64,000 nt of DNA, from NCBI GenBank assembly GCA_024653945.1, contig JANLIT010000003.1, positions 98,936 through 162,935 of the forward strand, written 5' to 3'. A model generated the notes under the pieces. It was not told the origin of the DNA and ran no database searches. It saw only the letters and a program-made list of their open reading frames with translations. Every line of letters begins with the position of its first letter. Position 1 is the first letter of the stretch. Below, piece by piece: positions 3,198 to 63,157 of the stretch. The DNA comes from Candidatus Campbellbacteria bacterium. Lineage in GTDB: Bacteria > Patescibacteriota > Minisyncoccia > Phycocordibacterales > EsbW-18. Position numbers and translations under genes: made by a program.

Positions 3198-3203
3198 GTT
3201 TTA

Positions 3204-3310
3204 TTCAGTTGTATCCTACTACGACTCGGCCAAAGGCCTCGCTTGCACTGCGATTTCAACAATCTCTCCGAGATTAAGAAATCGGGAGCATTAGCCCGAC
3301 CCAGCAATTG
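3204..3310 (-). other. Conserved structured leader immediately upstream of tRNA-Gln (copy A); homolog at 55371-55477
   Basis: 45-nt block AGTTGTATCCTACTACGACTCGGCCAAAGGCCTCGCTTGCACTGC is identical to the copy at 55371-55417 except for one mismatch; this copy carries hairpin GATTTC..AATCTC GGA GAGATT..GAAATC where the other copy carries a different perfect hairpin; conserved GGGAGC..GACCCAGCAA block follows. Confidence 0.45.
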
Positions 3311-3336
3311 AAGACACTATATCTTTTAAAACCTCT

Positions 3337-18905: not shown

Positions 18906-18990
18906 GGAGGGTTCGCATAGTGGTCTAGTGCGCACGCTTGGAAAGCGTGTGTGCCGCAAGGCACCATGAGTTCGAATCTCATACCCTCCG
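18906..18990 (+). tRNA. tRNA-Ser (anticodon GGA), type II
   Basis: Acceptor GGAGGGU/ACCCUCC, anticodon stem CACGC/GCGUG with loop UUGGAAA, long variable arm, T-arm AUGAGUUCGAAUCUCAU. Confidence 0.8.
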
Positions 18991-18997
18991 CTTTGTG

Positions 18998-19052
18998 TGG
19001 GAGAAAGCGTGTGTGGGTCACACCACCGAGAGTTCGAATCTCTCCGCCTCCG
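18998..19052 (+). pseudogene. 3' half of a tRNA-Ser paralog (anticodon loop through acceptor); partner of the 5' fragment at 18812
   Basis: GGGAGAAAGCGTG-TGTGGGTCACACCACC-GAGAGTTCGAATCTCTC-CGCCTCC-G parallels the tRNA-Ser 3' half; the core TGTGGGAGAAAGCG recurs at 19133-19148. Confidence 0.5.
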
Positions 19053-19088
19053 CACCTGATGCAAAAATACCCCGCGAGGGGTATTCTT
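19046..19088 (+). other. Stable hairpin with GNRA tetraloop downstream of the tRNA-Ser fragment
   Basis: CCTGATGCAA-AATACCCC-GCGA-GGGGTATT-CTTTGTGTCAGG. Confidence 0.45.
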
Positions 19089-22844: not shown

Positions 22845-23741
22845 CTAGTTTTTTCCAAGAAGTGCTCCGATTCTTTCGGAAACTGGCGGGTGAGTCAAAA
22901 ACAACTTTCTCCAGAAACCAATTTTTTTCTCGTGTCCTCCACCAAGCGGACTACTAATAAAAAGATGTGCTGTAGCTTTGTGTACTCGCTTCATGGGTTG
23001 TGTATATGAGGATATCTTCGAGAGCGCTCCTGCAAGCCCTTCTGGATAGCGCGTAAGCAATGCCCCCGATGCATCTGCTAGAAACTCACGTTTGCGTGAA
23101 ATAGCGAGCTGTATGCACAGACCTGCAATTGGCGTCAGAATAGCAAGTACAATGCCGGCAATAACAAAAAGTGCGTTTCCTCGATTGTCATCACCCCCTC
23201 GAATATGACGCGACGTACGCAAGAAAAAATCAGAGAGCAGACTTAAAAAACCAACAATAATCACAACAACTGTCGACAAAAGGATGTCCCAATTGCGTAT
23301 GTGTGAGAGTTCGTGGGCAATGACACCCTCAAGCTCTGATCTATCTAACATATGTAGCAACCCTGTTGTTACGGCAATTGTTGCATGCTCTGGATTTCGC
23401 CCAGTCGCAAATGCATTCGGAGCATCATCAGTAATCACGTAGATTTTTGGCATCGGAATACCTGCAGTAATGGAGAGATTTTCTGTAACGGTGTATAAAT
23501 CAAAAAACTCTTCACGTACTGCGGGGCGTGCACCAGACAGAGAAAGTGCCAATTTGTCGGAGTACCAATAGCTTCCTATATTCATCACCAAACTAAAAAT
23601 AACAGCCGCATACACAATTTCTGGTGCGCCATATACTTGTCCGAAAAACCAACCAACAACTACAATAATGCACAAAAAACCAACCATAAGAAGCCATGTT
23701 TTGGTAATATTATTTTCTTTATTGGAGTATAAGGAGCTCAT
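22845..23741 (-). CDS. htpX: Zinc metalloprotease HtpX (M48)
   Basis: HELSHIRNWD (HExxH); transmembrane topology; M48 length. Confidence 0.85.
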   Translation of the reverse strand: MSSLYSNKENNITKTWLLMVGFLCIIVVVGWFFGQVYGAPEIVYAAVIFSLVMNIGSYWYSDKLALSLSGARPAVREEFFDLYTVTENLSITAGIPMPKIYVITDDAPNAFATGRNPEHATIAVTTGLLHMLDRSELEGVIAHELSHIRNWDILLSTVVVIIVGFLSLLSDFFLRTSRHIRGGDDNRGNALFVIAGIVLAILTPIAGLCIQLAISRKREFLADASGALLTRYPEGLAGALSKISSYTQPMKRVHKATAHLFISSPLGGGHEKKIGFWRKLFLTHPPVSERIGALLGKN

Positions 23742-23748
23742 GTAAAGT

Positions 23749-23860
23749 ACGAAATCCGAATATCGAAACCCGAAATAATGTTTAATTCTCTAAATTCAAA
23801 AACTTTAAACATAAGAATTTGTTGATTTTTTCGAATTTCGTATTTCGAGTTTCGGATTTT
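23749..23860. repeat. Inverted-repeat element built from TTTCGR heptads, copy 1 (family with 62348-62469)
   Basis: Left arm GTACGAAATCCGAATATCGAAACCCGAAATAATG, AT-rich spacer, right arm TTTTCGAATTTCGTATTTCGAGTTTCGGATTTT (imperfect reverse complement); the left arm is ~88% identical to the ftsX-upstream copy; it fills the gap 8 nt upstream of the htpX ATG. Confidence 0.6.
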
Positions 23861-23863
23861 ATC

Positions 23864-24049
23864 TTAGCGTGGTTGATTTTCTGCCATGAGGTCACCCATT
23901 TGCGCAACCATTTCTTGATTTCTCATTTCAATTCTTTGTATCAATAAATATGCACGCCATGTCACAATCACCATCAACACAACAACAATAACCACAATAT
24001 ACCAAACCGAACTGACGTTTCGATTAAAATGTGAATAGACTGATTGCAT
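23864..24049 (-). CDS. Small single-transmembrane protein
   Basis: 61-aa ORF downstream of the NUDIX gene; stop codon embedded in the right arm of the repeat. Confidence 0.35.
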   Translation of the reverse strand: MQSVYSHFNRNVSSVWYIVVIVVVLMVIVTWRAYLLIQRIEMRNQEMVAQMGDLMAENQPR

Positions 24050-35411: not shown

Positions 35412-35443
35412 ATGTAGATACAGTATATCAAACTGGTCTCATT

Positions 35444-45840: not shown

Positions 45841-45865
45841 ATCTTAGTATAGCAAATAGACATGG

Positions 45866-49851: not shown

Positions 49852-49866
49852 TGGTATGTTTAAAAA

Positions 49867-50511
49867 TTATGGGTAGTTTCTACCGTCTCCGGTTATTGGG
49901 ATTTCCTCCCCCAGATATTTTGGCTCTGTATGAAACATGAGATCAAGTACTGCCTTCTCATTGGCAAAAACCTCGCGAATAGTGTTGCGGAAAAGAATAT
50001 TTCCAACATCCGCATTTACCCCATACGCTTGTATTCCGAGTCGGCGTGCAATAAAAACAGAACGAGGTAAATGGAACGACTGTGTGGTAATGAGCACGGA
50101 AGAAACCCCAAAAATGTCACGCGCACGATACATGGTGCTATAGGTATCAAAACCTGCGTGGTCAAGAAAAATATCCTGGTCGGGAACACCCCTATGTATA
50201 AGATAAAGGCGAACTGGATTCACCTCATTGTGACTCACGGTGCTGTTGTCGCCAGAAACAAGAATTTTTGACACCTTTCTTGCTTCATACAATCTAATGG
50301 CCATTTCAACACGGTCTACAAAAATAGGTGAGAGTGTACCATCTCCTAAAACAGCCGCCCCAGGAATAAGTGCCGCCTCGGCATCTGGAGCAGATGTAAC
50401 GTCACTATATATGTATGGTTTAGTCCCTACATAGATAACACTATTGGTGACAAAAATAAAAGCAATTAAAAAACACAAGCTCACCAGAACATACAGTTTG
50501 AAACGCTTCAT
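49867..50511 (-). CDS. SanA/YdcF (DUF218) family protein
   Basis: ILVSGDNSTVSHNEVNPV...LDHAGFDTYSTMYRA...TQSFHLPRSVFIARRLG. Confidence 0.7.
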   Translation of the reverse strand: MKRFKLYVLVSLCFLIAFIFVTNSVIYVGTKPYIYSDVTSAPDAEAALIPGAAVLGDGTLSPIFVDRVEMAIRLYEARKVSKILVSGDNSTVSHNEVNPVRLYLIHRGVPDQDIFLDHAGFDTYSTMYRARDIFGVSSVLITTQSFHLPRSVFIARRLGIQAYGVNADVGNILFRNTIREVFANEKAVLDLMFHTEPKYLGEEIPITGDGRNYP

Positions 50512-50707
50512 TCCCTAAGTATACGCTACTTTGAAATCTTCCTATCAAGACTTTTTTAAACCAGCTAGGAGAAATACGAGACCGATTGCAACCCAGAAGG
50601 AAACCATAGGCCAATTGCGGGTCTGAATTGCTTGGATGACTGCAACTCCAAAAAATAAAATAAATATCGTAATGTTTGTACCTACTGTATTCATGTGTGG
50701 GTGTATT

Positions 50708-51241
50708 TCAGAGTGCCCTTCCCCACGGAGTACCCAGTTTCGGCAAAAGATAACGGTCTATGCCAATGTAGCCAGCAACTTTCCATGCAAGAATCAATCC
50801 GATTGAAAGGGTGAAGAGTACGGGGTTTGAGCTCACCGTGCCTGCGAGCAGATAGTTCAAATTCATAAAGAGACCAAAGAATGCCGCAATGCCCGTGAAA
50901 AGACCAAGAATAAGTGCTATGCCGACCACCAATTCTCCCCACGCAACGAGGTGTGACCAGAAGACCGGGTATGCGAGCACAACATTTTGTAGAAAGTCTG
51001 CATACCATCCCTGTACGTCAGGATGTGCGCCAGCCGTTTTAGTTAGAGCCTTGGTAAGAAAACCGGTAATAGCACCTCCGGCGCCAGACCCAACCCACGC
51101 ATCGCTGGTAACTTTGGCCCAACCAGCTACAAGCCATTCGTATCCGACATAGAGTCGTACAAAAAGCCAGAACCAAGCAACTTTCGTGTTGTTAAATAAA
51201 AAATGAGAAATCGGTGACTCCTCAATGTGGTAATGTTGCAT
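50708..51241 (-). CDS. DoxX-family membrane protein
   Basis: 4 transmembrane segments with a DoxX-like conserved pattern; GC-rich. Confidence 0.6.
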   Translation of the reverse strand: MQHYHIEESPISHFLFNNTKVAWFWLFVRLYVGYEWLVAGWAKVTSDAWVGSGAGGAITGFLTKALTKTAGAHPDVQGWYADFLQNVVLAYPVFWSHLVAWGELVVGIALILGLFTGIAAFFGLFMNLNYLLAGTVSSNPVLFTLSIGLILAWKVAGYIGIDRYLLPKLGTPWGRAL

Positions 51242-51359
51242 AAAAATGAATGTGGCTAGTAATAAGATAATTGTACCTCAAAATATGGTTGCTGGCTGTG
51301 TGCCTCGCCCATAGGCTACGGCCGGGGGGGGACGATGTTGGAACCATAATAACACCGAA

Positions 51360-52610
51360 TTAACCTTGCTCCGCTAGTCCAGCGAGTGCTTTTAATTTAC
51401 TCCTCTCTATCTTATTTAAGAAAAATAGACTTACTACCAGAAGCAGAGCAAGCGAGGCAAGTCCTGTTTGATATCCTCGAACATTCTCTCCGACAACAAC
51501 AAGAACAATGCTCCATATAGCGGGACCAACAAATGTTGCAAACCTCTCTGCAACGACATAATAACTAAAAGAAGAAGCTACGAGGTTTGGTGGAGCAAGT
51601 TCCCCTACAAGGGCTCTGCTTATCCCCCACACTGGACCAAATAATATCCCAGCAAATAGAAAGATTGGGACGAGTATCTTAAAATCTGTGACCAACACCA
51701 TCGCCAGAAAAATGAAACACCACGTTATAAGAATCATTTTCAAAACCTTTAGATTTCCTTTTTTGTCAGCAATTTTACCAAAGAGAACTGCTCCTGCGGC
51801 CGCAAGAACAAGAATGCCTGCGGTAAGAATAGATTTTACAGTGTCAGTTGTCTGATGCACGGTTTCTAAGTAAAGCGGAAAATTATTGGCAAATGTAAGC
51901 ATCACATCACTGAATAAAAAGTAGGCAATCAAAAGAAGCGCCAAGGGTTTATATGCAAAAACTTCTTTGAACAAAGACACGAGGGTTGGTCGAGGTTCAA
52001 TACTATTCTTAATCAAAACTATATTTTGATCCTCTCGATAAAAAAGAAGCATGGGCAATGCAAGTAATCCAAAAAGGATTGTGGCGGGCAACAAAGCCTG
52101 TGCCCTTCCCGGATCACCAAATAACGTAATTCCATTTACAAAAGGAAGAGTAATCAAAACTCCTACCACCTGACCAAGTGAGTTTGCACCTTGCCCTATT
52201 CCTGATTTCCATGAACGATCAGTACCATTCGACAAATCATTTAACATCGGAGTAAAGTACAAGAAACAGGTAAGGTACGTATACGTTGAAAGTGCATATA
52301 CCACTGTAACCAAAGCCTCTGCGCCATCCGAAAGCATCGTGAGTAGAGCCACTACTAAATATCCGATGAAAGTAAGAGCGGTCCAGAAGCGAAGCCCTAT
52401 AATTTTTACTTTTAGGGTATCAATTTTCTTACTTATGATAGGTGCCGTAAAAATAAAAAGAACAGAGGCAACAACGAGCGCAATGTTATACCACCAAGCG
52501 GGCTTCCCCTGATCGATAACAAGCCATTGTGAAAAATAAAATAGAAATCCCATTAAAACTATGGAATTTGCAAAATCGTAGAGGGACCACAAAAACAATT
52601 TTTTATTCAT
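51360..52610 (-). CDS. MFS transporter (UMF1-like)
   Basis: LWSLYDFANSIV N-terminal signature; 12 transmembrane helices. Confidence 0.7.
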   Translation of the reverse strand: MNKKLFLWSLYDFANSIVLMGFLFYFSQWLVIDQGKPAWWYNIALVVASVLFIFTAPIISKKIDTLKVKIIGLRFWTALTFIGYLVVALLTMLSDGAEALVTVVYALSTYTYLTCFLYFTPMLNDLSNGTDRSWKSGIGQGANSLGQVVGVLITLPFVNGITLFGDPGRAQALLPATILFGLLALPMLLFYREDQNIVLIKNSIEPRPTLVSLFKEVFAYKPLALLLIAYFLFSDVMLTFANNFPLYLETVHQTTDTVKSILTAGILVLAAAGAVLFGKIADKKGNLKVLKMILITWCFIFLAMVLVTDFKILVPIFLFAGILFGPVWGISRALVGELAPPNLVASSFSYYVVAERFATFVGPAIWSIVLVVVGENVRGYQTGLASLALLLVVSLFFLNKIERSKLKALAGLAEQG

Positions 52611-52666
52611 TTTCAGTTGTTGACCCTGTGGGATGATGGTGGAACCTTTTTTATAAACTCAGACTG

Positions 52667-53092
52667 CTAATTATTTTCTTGAAAAATTTGCACTAGGGTT
52701 TTGTAAAAAAGAGACAAAACCACTGTTACTACAGTAATCACTATTTTTGTTAAAACACTAAAGTCCGTATAAATAGATACTGATAGGGCAAGGATAAGTC
52801 CCACAAGAACCGCAGAATAGTTTATTTCCTCTCTAAAATACTTAAATATATAAACACTCCAATCAAACCTTATTATATTGTGTTTTCCACATCTATTACA
52901 GATAAGGACTATATTACGAATTTGTTGATGGAAAACATTCGTAGCCAACACCTCATTGCAATTTCCACACTCAAAGTCGTACCCATCTTCATCACCACCT
53001 CTCATTATGACAGAACCTTCTTGCACTTTTAAAATTGCATGACTTTGGGCGTCAACCTCAGAAATAACGGATAGCTTAATGATATTCTTCAT
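52667..53092 (-). CDS. Hypothetical Zn-ribbon (CGNC...CNRC) protein with C-terminal transmembrane segment
   Basis: Two CxxC pairs 20 aa apart; C-terminal hydrophobic helix. Confidence 0.4.
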   Translation of the reverse strand: MKNIIKLSVISEVDAQSHAILKVQEGSVIMRGGDEDGYDFECGNCNEVLATNVFHQQIRNIVLICNRCGKHNIIRFDWSVYIFKYFREEINYSAVLVGLILALSVSIYTDFSVLTKIVITVVTVVLSLFYKTLVQIFQENN

Positions 53093-53214
53093 CTTGATTA
53101 TTTATTCTTTAGTTGCTCCTTTTGCGTACTACTAACTATAAATATCGTGTTGCTGGACTAGAACTCGGTCACGAGTTACTAAGTACCCCCAACCCATCTC
53201 GATCTAGCCTTGTT

Positions 53215-53781
53215 TTATTCCATTCTGTCGAAAGTAAACCATCGCAACTTCCTTACCGGAATCCCATACTTCTCCTCAATAACCCAAGCGGCATTGTTGA
53301 AAATCGCATCTTTCCAGTCATACCCAATTTTTAAAACCACCTTCTTTAAATCACCCTCATTTTCAGCTTCGAGTTCGACATAGGTCGGAATACGGGGCCA
53401 TGTGTCAATGTCGAACGTAACCCCATCCAACTCAAGTGTGTGGCGCTTTTTCTGCTGATGACGGTACGGTACAAGTCCCACCTTCTCAAAGAGTAACTCA
53501 GCCTTTTTATAGTCACTTACATCAAACTCTATTTCATACGCACCATCTACCGCATGAGCATTATGTTCTTTATATGAAAGCTTTACCCTCTCTCCCGTTT
53601 TCCTTATCCGAACAAAACGATTTGCTTCCTTCCACTTAAGAGCTTGATCGTAAATAATTGTTTCTTCGAGCATCACTTCACCTAAATCTTTTGCGCCAAG
53701 ACCAAGCAGGATTTTAACCAACTTATCTTTATCTATCTCCAAAAATCTGCATTCTATTTCTTTGTGTTCCATGTTTTTCAA
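53215..53781 (-). CDS. CYTH-domain protein (CyaB/triphosphate tunnel metalloenzyme family)
   Basis: N-terminal EIECRFL (ExExK-type) signature and size. Confidence 0.7.
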   Translation of the reverse strand: MKNMEHKEIECRFLEIDKDKLVKILLGLGAKDLGEVMLEETIIYDQALKWKEANRFVRIRKTGERVKLSYKEHNAHAVDGAYEIEFDVSDYKKAELLFEKVGLVPYRHQQKKRHTLELDGVTFDIDTWPRIPTYVELEAENEGDLKKVVLKIGYDWKDAIFNNAAWVIEEKYGIPVRKLRWFTFDRME

Positions 53782-53835
53782 TTTTAACTTAAGTATTCAT
53801 TTTTCAATAAGCAAGTACCTTCTTTTGAGGCATTT

Positions 53836-53869
53836 CAATCACCTGACTTAGCATAAGCGTGTTGGCTGA
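53836..53869. repeat. 34-nt conserved upstream element, copy 1 (upstream of the CYTH gene)
   Basis: TCAATCACCTGACTTAGCATAAGCGTGTTGGCTG; 32/34 identical to 54659-54692. Confidence 0.6.
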
Positions 53870-54002
53870 GTCAGTCTGAAACCTTGCCCAACAAGACCGT
53901 TGAGGGGTTTCTGAGACGATTTCAGTATAGCAGAACGAGGCCTCTCAGTCGGGTCTCGATAGATACGATAGACAGTAAAAAGACTGGTGGGGTGTCTATG
54001 TT

Positions 54003-54611
54003 TTAGTCCTGATGAAACATCCCCTTGGACACCCCTTCGTTTCGGATTAGTTCATAAAACATCGTTAAAACTTTTGAAAAAGAGTGTCGAGGAAGCTGGC
54101 GTGCATCAAGTGCAGAGACGGTGGCATGTTCCTCTTCCATTTTTCCTTTCCATCCAATTTCAAATGTCGTTCGGTGAACAACGGAATCAAACCGATCAAT
54201 TGACTTCACAGCTTTTGCTTCTGGTGTTTCTTTTGCTTCACACTCTTCCCACAGTTTTAATACTTCATCTCGAAGATCGTCTGGAAGTTTTGTTGTCATG
54301 CTATGTATCGCCGCTCGTTCTTTTTCCTCTTTATTCACTCTCGAATCGGTATCCCACGTTTTTGTGTCACCGGTCTGTATCTCTGCAAGGTCGTGTATGA
54401 GTGCCATCTTGAGCATCTTTTCACCGTCTAGTTTTGTTTCAAACTCCTTTTCAAGACGAGGTTTCAGGAGCATGCAAGTTACTGCAACAGACCATGAGTG
54501 TTCTGCGTCGTTTTCGTATCCACCGTTCGGTTGGGGTGTGAAACGATAGGTATGATGAAGTTTCCTTATCTCCTTAAGAAAGTCCAGTATCTGTCCTATA
54601 TCTTTTTCCAT
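54003..54611 (-). CDS. HD-domain phosphohydrolase (YfbR-like 5'-deoxynucleotidase)
   Basis: H..HD...E..GD metal-binding pattern (AEHSWSV...LIHDLAEIQTGD). Confidence 0.8.
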   Translation of the reverse strand: MEKDIGQILDFLKEIRKLHHTYRFTPQPNGGYENDAEHSWSVAVTCMLLKPRLEKEFETKLDGEKMLKMALIHDLAEIQTGDTKTWDTDSRVNKEEKERAAIHSMTTKLPDDLRDEVLKLWEECEAKETPEAKAVKSIDRFDSVVHRTTFEIGWKGKMEEEHATVSALDARQLPRHSFSKVLTMFYELIRNEGVSKGMFHQD

Positions 54612-54658
54612 ATTTTTATTCTATCACACGCCATATTCGAGATAGTGAGCTATACCTC

Positions 54659-54692
54659 TCAATCACCTAACGTAGCATAAGCGTGTTGGCTG
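54659..54692. repeat. 34-nt conserved upstream element, copy 2 (upstream of the HD gene)
   Basis: TCAATCACCTAACGTAGCATAAGCGTGTTGGCTG. Confidence 0.6.
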
Positions 54693-54713
54693 TATGGGAC
54701 GATGGTAGAATAC

Positions 54714-55283
54714 TTATTTTGAGGTCAGGATACCAAGATCTTTAAAAATTTGAGGCAATTCCTTAAAGCCATCATCCTCTGTTATGTGACCAGCATTATG
54801 AAGGACAACGACCTCCGTTCCCAATTGTTTGAATCCAGCAACGTTTTCTTTAAAAAATCCATAAGGATCATTGTCCGAGATAAGAAGGGCTGAGCGAGAT
54901 ATTACTCCCTTTATCTTTTCTTTACTAATTGGGGTCTCTATCCATGGTCTCGCAATTTCTTTTACCTCATCGCCTTCTAGGTTTGCTAGATTAAACCAAC
55001 CAGCAACAAACACTGCACCACCAATCGGAGTATTGATTGACTCTAAATAACGGAGAATCGTCTGACACCCAATCGAGTGACCAATGAAATATGTATTTTC
55101 GTCCGGTGTTCCAACTGCAGATGCCAAATGATTTACCCAGCTCTCGATAACGGGGGTATCTGTACTTGGCATTTCAAGAACAAAAACCTCGTAACTCTTG
55201 TTTTCTAATTCTTTTTTAAGCCACGGTCGCCAATCATCACTTGCGCCCCCCGACCATCGATGAACAATAAATGCGCGTTTCAT
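54714..55283 (-). CDS. YdeN/RBBP9-like alpha/beta serine hydrolase
   Basis: GHSIGC (GxSxG) and ~190-aa size; start set at MKRAF, because the longer ORF reads through tRNA-Gln and the leader. Confidence 0.7.
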   Translation of the reverse strand: MKRAFIVHRWSGGASDDWRPWLKKELENKSYEVFVLEMPSTDTPVIESWVNHLASAVGTPDENTYFIGHSIGCQTILRYLESINTPIGGAVFVAGWFNLANLEGDEVKEIARPWIETPISKEKIKGVISRSALLISDNDPYGFFKENVAGFKQLGTEVVVLHNAGHITEDDGFKELPQIFKDLGILTSK

Positions 55284-55295
55284 AAAAGTGTTTGT

Positions 55296-55365
55296 TGCTG
55301 GGCTTGGATTCGAACCAAGGTGACGACTTTCAGAGAGTCGCATCCTACCGCTAGATGACCCAGCA
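55296..55365 (-). tRNA. tRNA-Gln (anticodon CUG)
   Basis: Acceptor GCUGGGU/GCCCAGC, anticodon stem CGACU/AGUCG with loop CUCUGAA, T-arm UUGGUUCGAAUCCAA. Confidence 0.85.
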
Positions 55366-55370
55366 ATACA

Positions 55371-55477
55371 TAGTTGTGTCCTACTACGACTCGGCCAAAG
55401 GCCTCGCTTGCACTGCTGTTTGTATTCAATCGCTTTGCTCTTGAACAAACAGGGAGCGTTAGATGACCCAGCAAAGT
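55371..55477 (-). other. Conserved structured leader upstream of tRNA-Gln (copy B)
   Basis: Same 45-nt block as 3206-3250; this copy's hairpin is CUGUUUGU..ACAAACAG (8 bp perfect) at the position of the other copy's different perfect hairpin; its 5' block TGCTGGGTCATCTAACG mimics the 5' end of tRNA-Gln(CUG). Confidence 0.45.
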
Positions 55478-55552: not shown

Positions 55553-55867
55553 ATGATAGTACAAAAATACATTGAGTATCTTAAAGATAATCCTGAAAAA
55601 TACTGGTTCAAACGAAAAATATTTGGGTGGGGTTGGACTCCTGCAACGTGGCAGGGTTGGCTGATACTTCTGCTCTTTATCGCTTTGATAGTTGGCAATG
55701 CGTACCGAACAGATACCCAATCACTCTCTGGTGATGTACCCGTCGCATTTCTTGTGCAAACATTCATCCTTGTGATTGTTCTTATTGCAATCTGTTACAA
55801 AACTGGAGAAAAACCACGATGGCAGTGGGGCTTTCCTAAAAAAGACAATGACATCCCACGCACTTAG
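55553..55867 (+). CDS. Hypothetical small membrane protein
   Basis: Two transmembrane helices; Trp-rich N-terminus. Confidence 0.45.
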   Translation: MIVQKYIEYLKDNPEKYWFKRKIFGWGWTPATWQGWLILLLFIALIVGNAYRTDTQSLSGDVPVAFLVQTFILVIVLIAICYKTGEKPRWQWGFPKKDNDIPRT

Positions 55868-56189
55868 GCTTAGACAAACTGATACAGGTATTTTTGAAGA
55901 AGTGCGTAGTGGTCTAAAAAGTATTGAAACGCGCGCGGGTACACCTCGACATCAGAATATCAAAGTTGGAGACGAGTTGATTTTTGTGTGCGGAAAAAAT
56001 CGGTTCTCAAAGAAAGTTACCAAAATATATCATTGGCCGAGCGTTGATGGTATGGTCAAGGAAATTCCTTTCAAGAAAGTGATGCCGAGTATTTCTTCGA
56101 TTGAGGAAATGAAAAAAATCTACAACTCCTATCCGAACTACACCGAAAAAATAAAAGAGTTTGGTCTTCTTGGTTTTGTGCTTGTATAG
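55848..56189 (+). CDS. ASCH-domain protein
   Basis: ASCH-like ...ETR......I..GD.LIFV pattern; start chosen at MTSHALRL. Confidence 0.5.
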   Translation: MTSHALRLRQTDTGIFEEVRSGLKSIETRAGTPRHQNIKVGDELIFVCGKNRFSKKVTKIYHWPSVDGMVKEIPFKKVMPSISSIEEMKKIYNSYPNYTEKIKEFGLLGFVLV

Positions 56190-56636
56190 ATATTAACTTG
56201 CGCGAGTTGTTCGTACCTATATCTAGACTCAACATCGCGGATAAGATGTGTCATAAAAAAAATATTTTTATTTGGTTTTGGTATTGGCGTTTCGGTTATC
56301 AAAGCACTTACACACCATCTAGCAAAAGACTCTCCTCTGCGTGAAATTGTTATTGTGACAGGTTCAAGAGATGAAAATGACGTTCTGTACAAAGAGTTTT
56401 TTGAAGATGTGGCACAAAAGAACACGAACGTCTCATATACATACACCATATCTCGTCCATCTGAACACACACCTTTAAAACACACAGGGCACATTCAAGA
56501 CCATATTAAAAACCTACAATTTGATATCAGTGATGTCTATGTGTGTGGTCAAGAGAAGGCATGCAACGATCTTGTGGAAAAAATCCAAATGACAAAACCA
56601 GAGGACTGTGTCTTTTTCGTGGAGGCCTTCCATTAA
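56190..56636 (+). pseudogene. Remnant of an FNR-like oxidoreductase (NAD(P)-binding domain only; no start, FAD domain missing)
   Basis: The in-frame read from the ASCH stop gives ...FGFGIGVSVIKALTHHL...DVYVCGQEKACNDLV...VFFVEAF, typical of the C-terminal NAD-binding half of FNR-family reductases; no ATG and no FAD-binding RxYS region. Confidence 0.45.
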
Positions 56637-61406: not shown

Positions 61407-62333
61407 TTATGCACGAAGATACCGACGAACAGCGAGATAACTTGAGATTGCACCAAGAAAAATTCCAGCAGCAAGAATAATGAGAAACATCTCTCCAAAA
61501 TTGCTTACGTAATATTCAAACAAGTTCATTGCACCAAAAAATTCTTTGGTAAATGGCCCAATCCAGTACGTCAGAGGGTAAAAGAGTGCAAGGACAAGTA
61601 TTCCAGACACAATACCATACATAACACCCTCAACAACAAATGGTCCACGCACATACATATTTCCAGCACCGACAAGGCGCATAACTGAAATCTCTTCGCG
61701 TGCAGTGTAAATCGCAAGCCGAATAGTATTGAATGTAATAATGAGGGAGAGAACAATAAGAATCACACTGAGAGCAAGTCCGAGTCGTTCTGCTGAATTA
61801 ATGATATTACTTAATTTTTCTATAACCACCTTATTATCGTTATAGTTTACTTTTTGAATGATAACATTATTACTACTTCCGAGAGATGCTGGACTATCTA
61901 AGAACGCCGCGACAGCCTCATATTGAGATGTCTCCTTTGCGCGAATATTAAATACCGCACCAAGTGGGTTATCATCCAACTCTTGAAGTGCGCCGAGAAT
62001 TGTTTGGTCGTCTTTGTGTCGCTCCTGAAATGCTACAAGAGCTTGTTCGCGTGTAACATACCCAACGGTTGCCACCTCAGGAAGTGCTTCAAGAGCTCCT
62101 TTAAGCTTTAAAATATCGGTCTCTGTGGCGTCCGTCAAAAAGTACACATTCACATCAACTTTTTCTTTCAATTGCAGCAGTGATGCATTCAATATTGCTC
62201 CAGAAAAAATAACTGCTCCGAGAGTAAACAGTGTTACCACCATAATCAGGACAGAGGCGAGCGACACAAAACCGTTGCGCCAAAAATTCACAAATCCCGC
62301 TTTCAGTATTCTTTTTGTGTTAATCCAAAACAT
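61407..62333 (-). CDS. ftsX: Cell division permease FtsX
   Basis: 4-transmembrane FtsX topology with periplasmic loop; downstream of ftsE; start set at ATG 62333. Confidence 0.8.
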   Translation of the reverse strand: MFWINTKRILKAGFVNFWRNGFVSLASVLIMVVTLFTLGAVIFSGAILNASLLQLKEKVDVNVYFLTDATETDILKLKGALEALPEVATVGYVTREQALVAFQERHKDDQTILGALQELDDNPLGAVFNIRAKETSQYEAVAAFLDSPASLGSSNNVIIQKVNYNDNKVVIEKLSNIINSAERLGLALSVILIVLSLIITFNTIRLAIYTAREEISVMRLVGAGNMYVRGPFVVEGVMYGIVSGILVLALFYPLTYWIGPFTKEFFGAMNLFEYYVSNFGEMFLIILAAGIFLGAISSYLAVRRYLRA

Positions 62334-62347
62334 AATAGTTACATTAA

Positions 62348-62469
62348 GCACGAAATCCGAATGTCGAAATCCGAAATAATATCTAATTTTTAAATTTAAA
62401 ATTTTTAAACATTTGGATATTCATACATTTTTATTTGTTTCGATTTTCGTGCTTCGATATTCGAATTTT
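62348..62469. repeat. Inverted-repeat element built from TTTCGR heptads, copy 2 (between ftsE and ftsX)
   Basis: Left arm GCACGAAATCCGAATGTCGAAATCCGAAATAATA, right arm TTTCGATTTTCGTGCTTCGATATTCGAATTTT; the right arm overlaps the ftsE stop; the left arm ends 15 nt before the ftsX ATG. Confidence 0.6.
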
Positions 62470-63157
62470 ATAAGACGTACCTTCCCTCCTTATCATCACG
62501 TACCACACGCCCTTTCTCCATTGTAATAACGCGCTTACCCAAACTATCAATAATGCCTTTGTTGTGTGTCGTCAAAAGAACTGTCGTTCCTAAATCATTA
62601 ATCTTTTTCAAAATCTGAACAACTTCATACGAGTTGAGCGGGTCGAGGTTTCCTGTTGGTTCATCTGCCACAAGCACGTCTGGTTGATTCACAATTGCCC
62701 GTGCAATGGCAAGGCGTTGTTTTTCTCCTCCGGACATTTGATTAGGAAATTTCCATGCTTTATCAAGAAGTCCAACGAGTTCAAGTGCGTACGGCACATC
62801 GCTCTCAATATCTACATCATTACGTCCTGCAGCTTCCATTGCAAATGCAATATTTTCAAATGCTGTTTTGTACGGAAGGAGACGAAAATCCTGAAAAATC
62901 ATTCCTATTTTACGTCGTAGGGCACTAATCTCACGACGAGACAACGAATGAATATCAACGTTTCCGAAGGAAACTGATCCCCCTGTTGGACGTTCTTCGG
63001 CAAGCAAAAGTTTGAGAAGCGTCGTCTTTCCCGCCCCCGAGTGTCCCACAATAGAAACAAATTCGCTTGGCTCTATGGTAAAAGTTACCTCTTGGAGTGC
63101 CTTTGAGTCATCCGAGTATATTTTACTAACATTATCAAATGAAATCATGTGCATCAT
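62468..63157 (-). CDS. ftsE: Cell division ATP-binding protein FtsE
   Basis: Walker A GHSGAGKTT; signature LSGGEKQR; Walker B. Confidence 0.9.
   Translation of the reverse strand: MMHMISFDNVSKIYSDDSKALQEVTFTIEPSEFVSIVGHSGAGKTTLLKLLLAEERPTGGSVSFGNVDIHSLSRREISALRRKIGMIFQDFRLLPYKTAFENIAFAMEAAGRNDVDIESDVPYALELVGLLDKAWKFPNQMSGGEKQRLAIARAIVNQPDVLVADEPTGNLDPLNSYEVVQILKKINDLGTTVLLTTHNKGIIDSLGKRVITMEKGRVVRDDKEGRYVL

Follow-up and report, generated by a model that had tools for sequence, protein, structure and literature searches.

Direct repeats that border inserted DNA are a known feature, exemplified by the attL and attR sites that flank tRNA-integrated islands. Casposons, whose integrases are of the Cas1 type, generate a 15-bp target-site duplication beside the 3' end of tRNA-Pro (PMC5137440). 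Transposons and MITEs carry terminal inverted repeats within a short (2-15 bp) duplication and are present in multiple copies, and integron cassettes are single genes between repeat copies in a co-directional gene string. Sequences shared by the upstream regions of genes may also be regulon operators, such as NrdR boxes, or parts of riboswitches and leader RNAs.

The pair of 34-nt sequences described here, R1 and R2, is best read as a further case of this kind. It lies in a 64-kb stretch (the window) of a 228-kb contig from the metagenome-assembled genome of an uncultured Candidatus Campbellbacteria bacterium, the contig that carries MCR4274917.1 and MCR4274916.1. The genes around it read, on the minus strand, tRNA-Gln(CTG), a serine hydrolase gene (SerHyd), R2, an HD-domain phosphohydrolase gene (HD), a 134-nt spacer, R1, a CYTH-domain gene (CYTH), a gene for a 141-aa protein and an MFS transporter gene (Table 1). 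As in tRNA-integrated islands, direct repeats flank the proposed insert, and the surrounding block sits between an intact tRNA-Gln and a partial 3' copy of it and is absent from the closest relative (L015). Unlike attL and attR, the 34-mer does not appear to be tRNA sequence, there is no integrase in the 64 kb, the unit consists of one 790-bp gene unit and its composition is native. Casposons share with this locus unusually long duplications at or near tRNA ends, here 18-19 nt at tRNA ends and 34 nt around HD, but Cas1, a polymerase and terminal inverted repeats are all lacking here and 34 bp exceeds 15 bp, so that the comparison is an analogy only. The arrangement also resembles an integron cassette in having a single gene between repeat copies in a co-directional string, although an attC-like imperfect palindrome and an integron integrase are both lacking, and HD is preceded by an extended -10 box of its own. 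In contrast to a transposon or MITE, the HD unit has no inverted repeats at its ends, a 34-bp rather than a short duplication and a single copy. Like regulon operators, the copies lie in intergenic DNA before a gene, in the same orientation and in front of two nucleotide phosphohydrolase genes; unlike them, the repeat is non-palindromic, far longer, far more identical between copies, not conserved and inconsistently placed relative to predicted promoters. It also has neither the conserved structure nor the match to a known family that would be expected of a riboswitch or leader RNA.

Table 1 The 34-nt repeat, neighbouring genes and predicted promoter elements (window coordinates)
Feature	Position	Strand	Sequence or remark
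R1, 34-nt repeat copy between HD and CYTH	53835-53868	-	CAGCCAACACGCTTATGCTAAGTCAGGTGATTGA
R2, 34-nt repeat copy between SerHyd and HD	54659-54692	-	CAGCCAACACGCTTATGCTACGTTAGGTGATTGA
HD, HD_3 / YfbR-like phosphohydrolase gene (202 aa; MCR4274917.1)	54003-54611	-	Sole gene between the copies
CYTH, CYTH-domain gene (185 aa; MCR4274916.1)	53215-53772	-	
SerHyd, serine hydrolase gene (PF06821)	54714-55283	-	Starts 10 nt past tRNA-Gln
tRNA-Gln(CTG)	55294-55365	-	Left border of the islet
Non-coding tail (134 nt) of the bracketed unit	53869-54002	-	No resemblance to the rest of the window
Right border of the SerHyd-HD-CYTH block	53148-53185	-	Arm TACTTAGTAACTCGTGACC, then degenerate (15/19) tRNA-Gln 3'-end copy
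Extended -10 box before HD	54618-54626	-	TGATAGAAT; 6 nt before the HD ATG, within the bracketed unit; predicted promoter
Extended -10 box upstream of R1	53924-53932	-	TGCTATACT; 55 nt upstream of R1, 152 nt upstream of the CYTH ATG; best candidate CYTH promoter
Extended -10 box beside R2	54703-54711	+	TGGTAGAAT; 10 nt from R2, antisense into the end of SerHyd

The two-copy repeat is real and beyond chance: 0 of 100 dinucleotide shuffles of the window gave two matches to it. This confirms the original prediction of a 34-nt sequence present in two minus-strand copies identical at 32 of 34 bases. R2 lies exactly where it had been placed, and R1, which had been set at 53836-53869, starts and ends one base to the left. 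On the coding (minus) strand the consensus is CAGCCAACACGCTTATGCTA[A/C]GT[C/T]AGGTGATTGA; the copies differ by A/C at position 21 and C/T at position 24, leaving a longest exact block of 20 nt, and both are in direct orientation, 824 bp apart. The next best match in the 64-kb window has 14 mismatches, which is background, and neither a third copy nor enrichment of any sub-motif (sub-windows of 14-20 nt) was found there. Identity between the copies is 94% within the repeat and, from the very next base on either side, 22-27%, the random level; a gapped alignment of the flanks scores no better than shuffles. Such sharp edges are the signature of a junction, not of a longer duplication in decay.

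The repeat has no dyad or internal direct-repeat symmetry, and two short palindromes of R1, CTTA..TAAG and TCA..TGA, are both disrupted by the substitutions in R2. RNA folds of each copy, with and without flanks and on both strands, were no better than those of shuffles (z-scores of -0.53 to +0.44), the fold of the HD-to-CYTH intergenic stretch was unremarkable, and Rfam gave no match at the repeat either at the gathering threshold or at E values up to 10. A sigma-70 two-hexamer scan returned nothing at the repeat, and the TTGA that ends it has no usable -10 box 16-18 nt downstream in R1. Two coding interpretations were tried and rejected. The frame SQHAYA(K/T)(S/L)GD-stop, which ends at the repeat edge, could have been a coding relic, but there is no upstream ORF and SerHyd is complete; a small upstream ORF would have 16 codons in R1 versus 3 codons in R2. 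No guide-like complement of the repeat turned up when the islet was searched for one.

The genes that flank the copies are intact and of full length. The original prediction was right about the HD and CYTH genes, the former being HD_3/YfbR-like, and both start positions agree with the lengths of homologues. The end of R2 is 47 nt from the HD ATG, close to the predicted spacing of about 50 nt; for CYTH, predicted at about 55 nt, the distance from the end of R1 is 62 nt to the ATG or 53 nt to an upstream in-frame TTG. We take the ATG as the start because nearly all of the listed CYTH homologues have 185 aa. The composition of HD is native to the genome (GC3 z of 0.34, codon-usage z of 1.19). A PADLOC run on the four proteins gave no defence-system match, and a literature search on linkage between CYTH and HD genes found nothing useful.

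Beyond the window, the repeat appears to be private to this lineage. Exact searches of 185,579 species-representative genomes, JGI metagenome contigs and IMG/VR retrieved neither the 20-nt invariant block nor the other half of the repeat, and blastn of the 941-bp region against a phage collection gave no match. In relatives, where a test set beforehand looked for conservation of the motif before CYTH or HD genes, the regulatory reading of the original prediction failed: the 34-mer was absent upstream of all HD and CYTH homologues examined, with 18 related loci lacking the repeat, including four syntenic Campbellbacteria loci (L015-L018). The nearest homologues share 79% identity with HD and 74% with CYTH. 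Homologues at 14 loci (L001-L014) have different neighbourhoods and usually start 5-30 nt from the preceding gene, with no space for the motif, and in the nearest relatives HD and CYTH belong to tightly packed operons elsewhere. In two other Patescibacteria the gene types come together. At one locus (L006, 5412-6558) a distant HD_3 gene runs 14 nt into the start of CYTH, and at another (L009, 6001-7124) a SerHyd homologue directly follows CYTH. These small hydrolase genes are thus in a loose association that recurs.

Syntenic Campbellbacteria were found by a search with the neighbouring ribonucleotide reductase (RNR), which is 90% identical in L015, 87% in L016 (complete genome CP064977.1) and 86% in L017 and L018. 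To the right of RNR the gene order of the relatives is that of the window. [quoted passage not shown] Because of this junction, positions 49855-55293 of the window, a 5.4-kb islet that encodes DUF218, DoxX, MFS, the 141-aa protein, CYTH, HD and SerHyd, can be recognised as missing in L015. Within the islet, SerHyd-R2-HD-R1-CYTH occupies exactly the interval between tRNA-Gln and the right end of an element, an arm and a tRNA copy that come just past the CYTH stop codon; the tRNA 3'-end copy itself spans 53148-53166. In L016 and L017 an identical arm and an exact 19-nt tRNA 3'-end copy follow only ~140-150 nt after tRNA-Gln. The SerHyd-HD-CYTH block therefore has the structure of a tRNA-linked island, with an intact tRNA, a partial copy and absence in L015. 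When the ~65 ORFs in the window were scanned with Pfam, only DprA, topoisomerase I and ParB came up, with no integrase, recombinase or transposase. The remaining islet genes (DUF218, DoxX, MFS and the 141-aa zinc-ribbon-like membrane protein) lie at 49867-53092, between the tRNA 3'-end copy and VTT, and no second tRNA fragment was found at the far border of that stretch.

Insertions have also occurred on the other side of the tRNA. The 5' side of tRNA-Gln in the window carries a ~108-nt insert flanked by a 17/18 duplication of the first 18 nt of the tRNA; neither L016 nor L017 has this insert, and in L015 its place is taken by another one. Further along, the interval between the 104-aa gene and RNR is a second site of replacement or deletion at the locus. 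In relatives it contains a 147-aa gene, rubredoxin, ApbE, a 221-aa gene and an FNR-like reductase (L015, 1515-4570); in the window the same interval (55776-56636) holds only an ASCH-domain gene and a 93-aa FNR-like remnant (56355-56636). The tRNA-Gln locus is an insertion hotspot, and its inserts typically come with long direct target duplications.

Small structured elements accompany tRNA genes in these genomes. The element of L016 and L017 is ~190 nt long and is found after tRNA-Gln in both (L016, 4405-4591; L017, 4756-4929) and after tRNA-Met in L016 (18290-18479). It ends in the arm TACTTAGTRAYTCGTGACC and an exact 19-nt copy of the 3' end of the resident tRNA, and an internal segment complementary to the tRNA copy varies along with the tRNA. 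RNAalifold predicts 40 pairs, 12 of them changed on both sides; Rfam gave no match to the element, which could be a mobile mini-element or a tRNA-linked structured RNA. The window retains only its last 38 nt (53148-53185). A different element, of ~105 nt, lies directly upstream of both tRNA-Gln genes of the window (55366-55475 and 3198-3312, both on the minus strand and 52 kb apart), and at the CTG locus it is the insert with the 17/18 duplication of the tRNA 5' end. Its copies share an identical 38-nt block, GCAGTGCAAGCGAGGCCTTTGGCCGAGTCGTAGTAGGA, and two hairpins that, by eye, seem to be kept by differing sequences; RNAalifold on the two sequences found one both-side-changed pair only, and Rfam again gave no match.

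Two further repeats lie elsewhere in the window. An element of ~125 nt occurs in two ~80% identical minus-strand copies (about 23745-23865 and 62346-62470), immediately upstream of two unrelated genes, an M48 peptidase gene (22845-23741) and an FtsX gene (61407-62351); around its AT-rich centre stand two arms of CGAAA/TTTCG-type short repeats, each the reverse complement of the other. The 3' part of tRNA-Ser(GGA) (18941-18991) is followed, 12 nt on, by a second, 76% similar tRNA-like 3' portion (19003-19053) that ARAGORN did not call.

The positions of the copies were also compared with predicted promoters. In this window the extended -10 motif TGnTA(T/G)A(A/C/T)T reaches 0.74 per kb per strand in intergenic DNA, against 0.06 in coding DNA, a 12-fold enrichment. 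It often stands 6-11 nt before an ATG that has no Shine-Dalgarno sequence, as at 54618-54626, 45846-45854 and 35422-35430, positions that suggest frequent leaderless mRNAs in this organism; a search of the literature on Patescibacteria promoters found nothing useful. Judged from the box before its ATG, HD would be transcribed into a leaderless mRNA without the repeat, with R2 lying ~48-81 bp upstream of the predicted start site at about 54611. R1, by contrast, would be at ~+48 to +81 of the best candidate CYTH promoter, whose predicted start site is at about 53916, inside the long predicted CYTH leader (5' UTR). On these predicted promoters no single operator, promoter-element, 5'-UTR or 3'-end model would fit both copies. 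A weaker CYTH -10 candidate (AATACT) would place the ends of the two copies 35 and 37 nt upstream of their respective -10 boxes. The plus-strand box beside R2 could be an antisense promoter or a chance match.

We propose that R1 and R2 are the border duplications of a ~790-bp insertion that carried HD, a reading whose chances of being right and wrong we judge to be about even. It recommends itself because the repeat is sharply bounded, private, two-copy and direct, and surrounds a self-contained gene unit at an insertion-prone locus. The unit that entered the SerHyd-CYTH spacer, duplicating one 34-bp intergenic stretch as it did so, would have comprised HD with a promoter of its own immediately ahead of the ATG, and the 134-nt tail with an outward-facing promoter-like box, and the event would have taken place inside the lineage-specific islet immediately downstream of tRNA-Gln(CTG). 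The duplication could have arisen by fill-in of widely staggered cuts, leaving a long target-site duplication, or by Campbell-type recombination in which a circular intermediate entered via a short stretch of identity. What is observed comprises the sharply bordered repeat, its lack of counterparts elsewhere, an L015 locus without the islet and the other inserts with long duplications; that an insertion happened, in which direction and by what mechanism, we infer.

The insertion reading draws support from the copies bracketing exactly one gene, which has its own extended -10 box, and from two other inserts at the same locus, with flanking duplications of 18-19 nt. It agrees with the second suggestion of the original prediction, that the copies bracket HD as a cassette, which the sharp edges, the self-contained unit with its own promoter and the lineage-specific islet with its duplicated inserts make the favoured though not a proven account. 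Against it stand the absence of integrase, transposase and recombinase genes from the ~65 ORFs, the lack of recombinase-type dyad symmetry in the repeat, the native composition of HD and the length of the duplication, since, to our knowledge, 34 bp exceeds any well-documented target-site duplication. An empty site (SerHyd and CYTH separated by a single repeat, with no HD) was not found among relatives at about 75-90% protein identity, and the retention of both copies in a streamlined genome might mean that the sequence is under selection. As a side effect, recombination between R1 and R2 might delete HD. A related origin, differential deletion after a tandem duplication of R-HD-CYTH, was rejected, as the 134-nt tail is unlike anything in the CYTH or SerHyd regions.

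The original prediction preferred a common operator, promoter or small-RNA target. In its general form, this holds that the repeat is a cis-regulatory element (a protein-binding site in DNA or an RNA recognition sequence) that co-regulates HD and CYTH and was copied between their upstream regions. We consider this unlikely. In its favour, the copies have the same orientation to the downstream gene at distances of 47 and 62 nt from the start codons; a functional link between HD and CYTH is plausible given that the former directly precedes the latter at L006; the genome retains other pairs of conserved upstream sequences; and a compact genome would tend to shed a useless repeat pair. Yet 94% identity over 34 asymmetric bases, with neither a dyad nor internal direct repeats, is atypical of operators. 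There are no further sites or half-sites in the 64 kb, no significant RNA fold and no Rfam family, and the element is conserved neither upstream of homologues nor in syntenic relatives. By the typical extended -10 motif, moreover, the copies would fall on opposite sides of their promoters and the HD mRNA would lack the repeat. Shared regulation is thereby made less probable, though the AATACT alternative would give both copies a like spacing.

More improbable, in our view, is that R1 and R2 belong to a low-copy dispersed family (REP- or MITE-like, or the end of an element) with more copies elsewhere in the ~1-Mb genome, and are neighbours by chance or through local spread. The sequence examined is 64 kb of a 228-kb contig, and other intergenic repeat pairs exist in it, with copies of the ~125-nt element 38.6 kb apart and those of the ~105-nt element 52 kb apart. 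The 34-nt copies are only 824 bp from each other, however, with none elsewhere in the 64 kb; they lack both terminal inverted repeats and a fold, and neither half has an exact match in the collections or in the related Patescibacteria loci that were fetched. A very unlikely origin is that each repeat is a decayed copy of the place where the tRNA-Gln 3' end meets the DNA downstream of it, left by successive insertions of CYTH, then HD, then SerHyd. The order tRNA-SerHyd-R2-HD-R1-CYTH-tRNA 3' copy would suit it, and 16 of the repeat's first 22 bases agree with the sequence running from the tRNA end into the start region of SerHyd; this similarity is weak (p of about 0.02 in one of 14 comparisons) and inside the background of a window scan, and the repeat is without the T-loop part that true tRNA copies carry. 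A chance match or an assembly artefact is hardly credible: the sequence does come from a metagenome-assembled genome, but the shuffles yielded no comparable pair, the copies are non-identical, with no exact block longer than 20 nt, and the neighbouring genes are intact and full length.

Border duplication by insertion, the reading we prefer, also admits a broader and quite improbable version. The tRNA-Gln locus of this Campbellbacteria lineage might bear the traces of an insertion process not yet recognised in Patescibacteria, one that makes duplications of 18-34 bp, moves small structured elements as well as promoter-plus-gene units and needs no recombinase encoded nearby. If so, R1 and R2 would be one footprint of that process, which might help to explain the fluid neighbourhoods of small accessory genes in Patescibacteria, a group with few recognisable mobile-element genes.

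By itself the repeat is a minor feature, a duplication private to this lineage at the borders of one gene, and it carries the lesson that upstream motifs, however long and nearly identical, are no evidence of co-regulation. What it marks is a tRNA-Gln hotspot at which a streamlined genome gained 5.4 kb of accessory genes, with several inserts that have unusually long flanking duplications. The locus is more interesting than the repeat because it brings together long duplications, turnover of gene units and small structured elements next to tRNAs. Should one mechanism underlie these duplications, the locus would offer a way into the question of how gene order is reshuffled in Patescibacteria.
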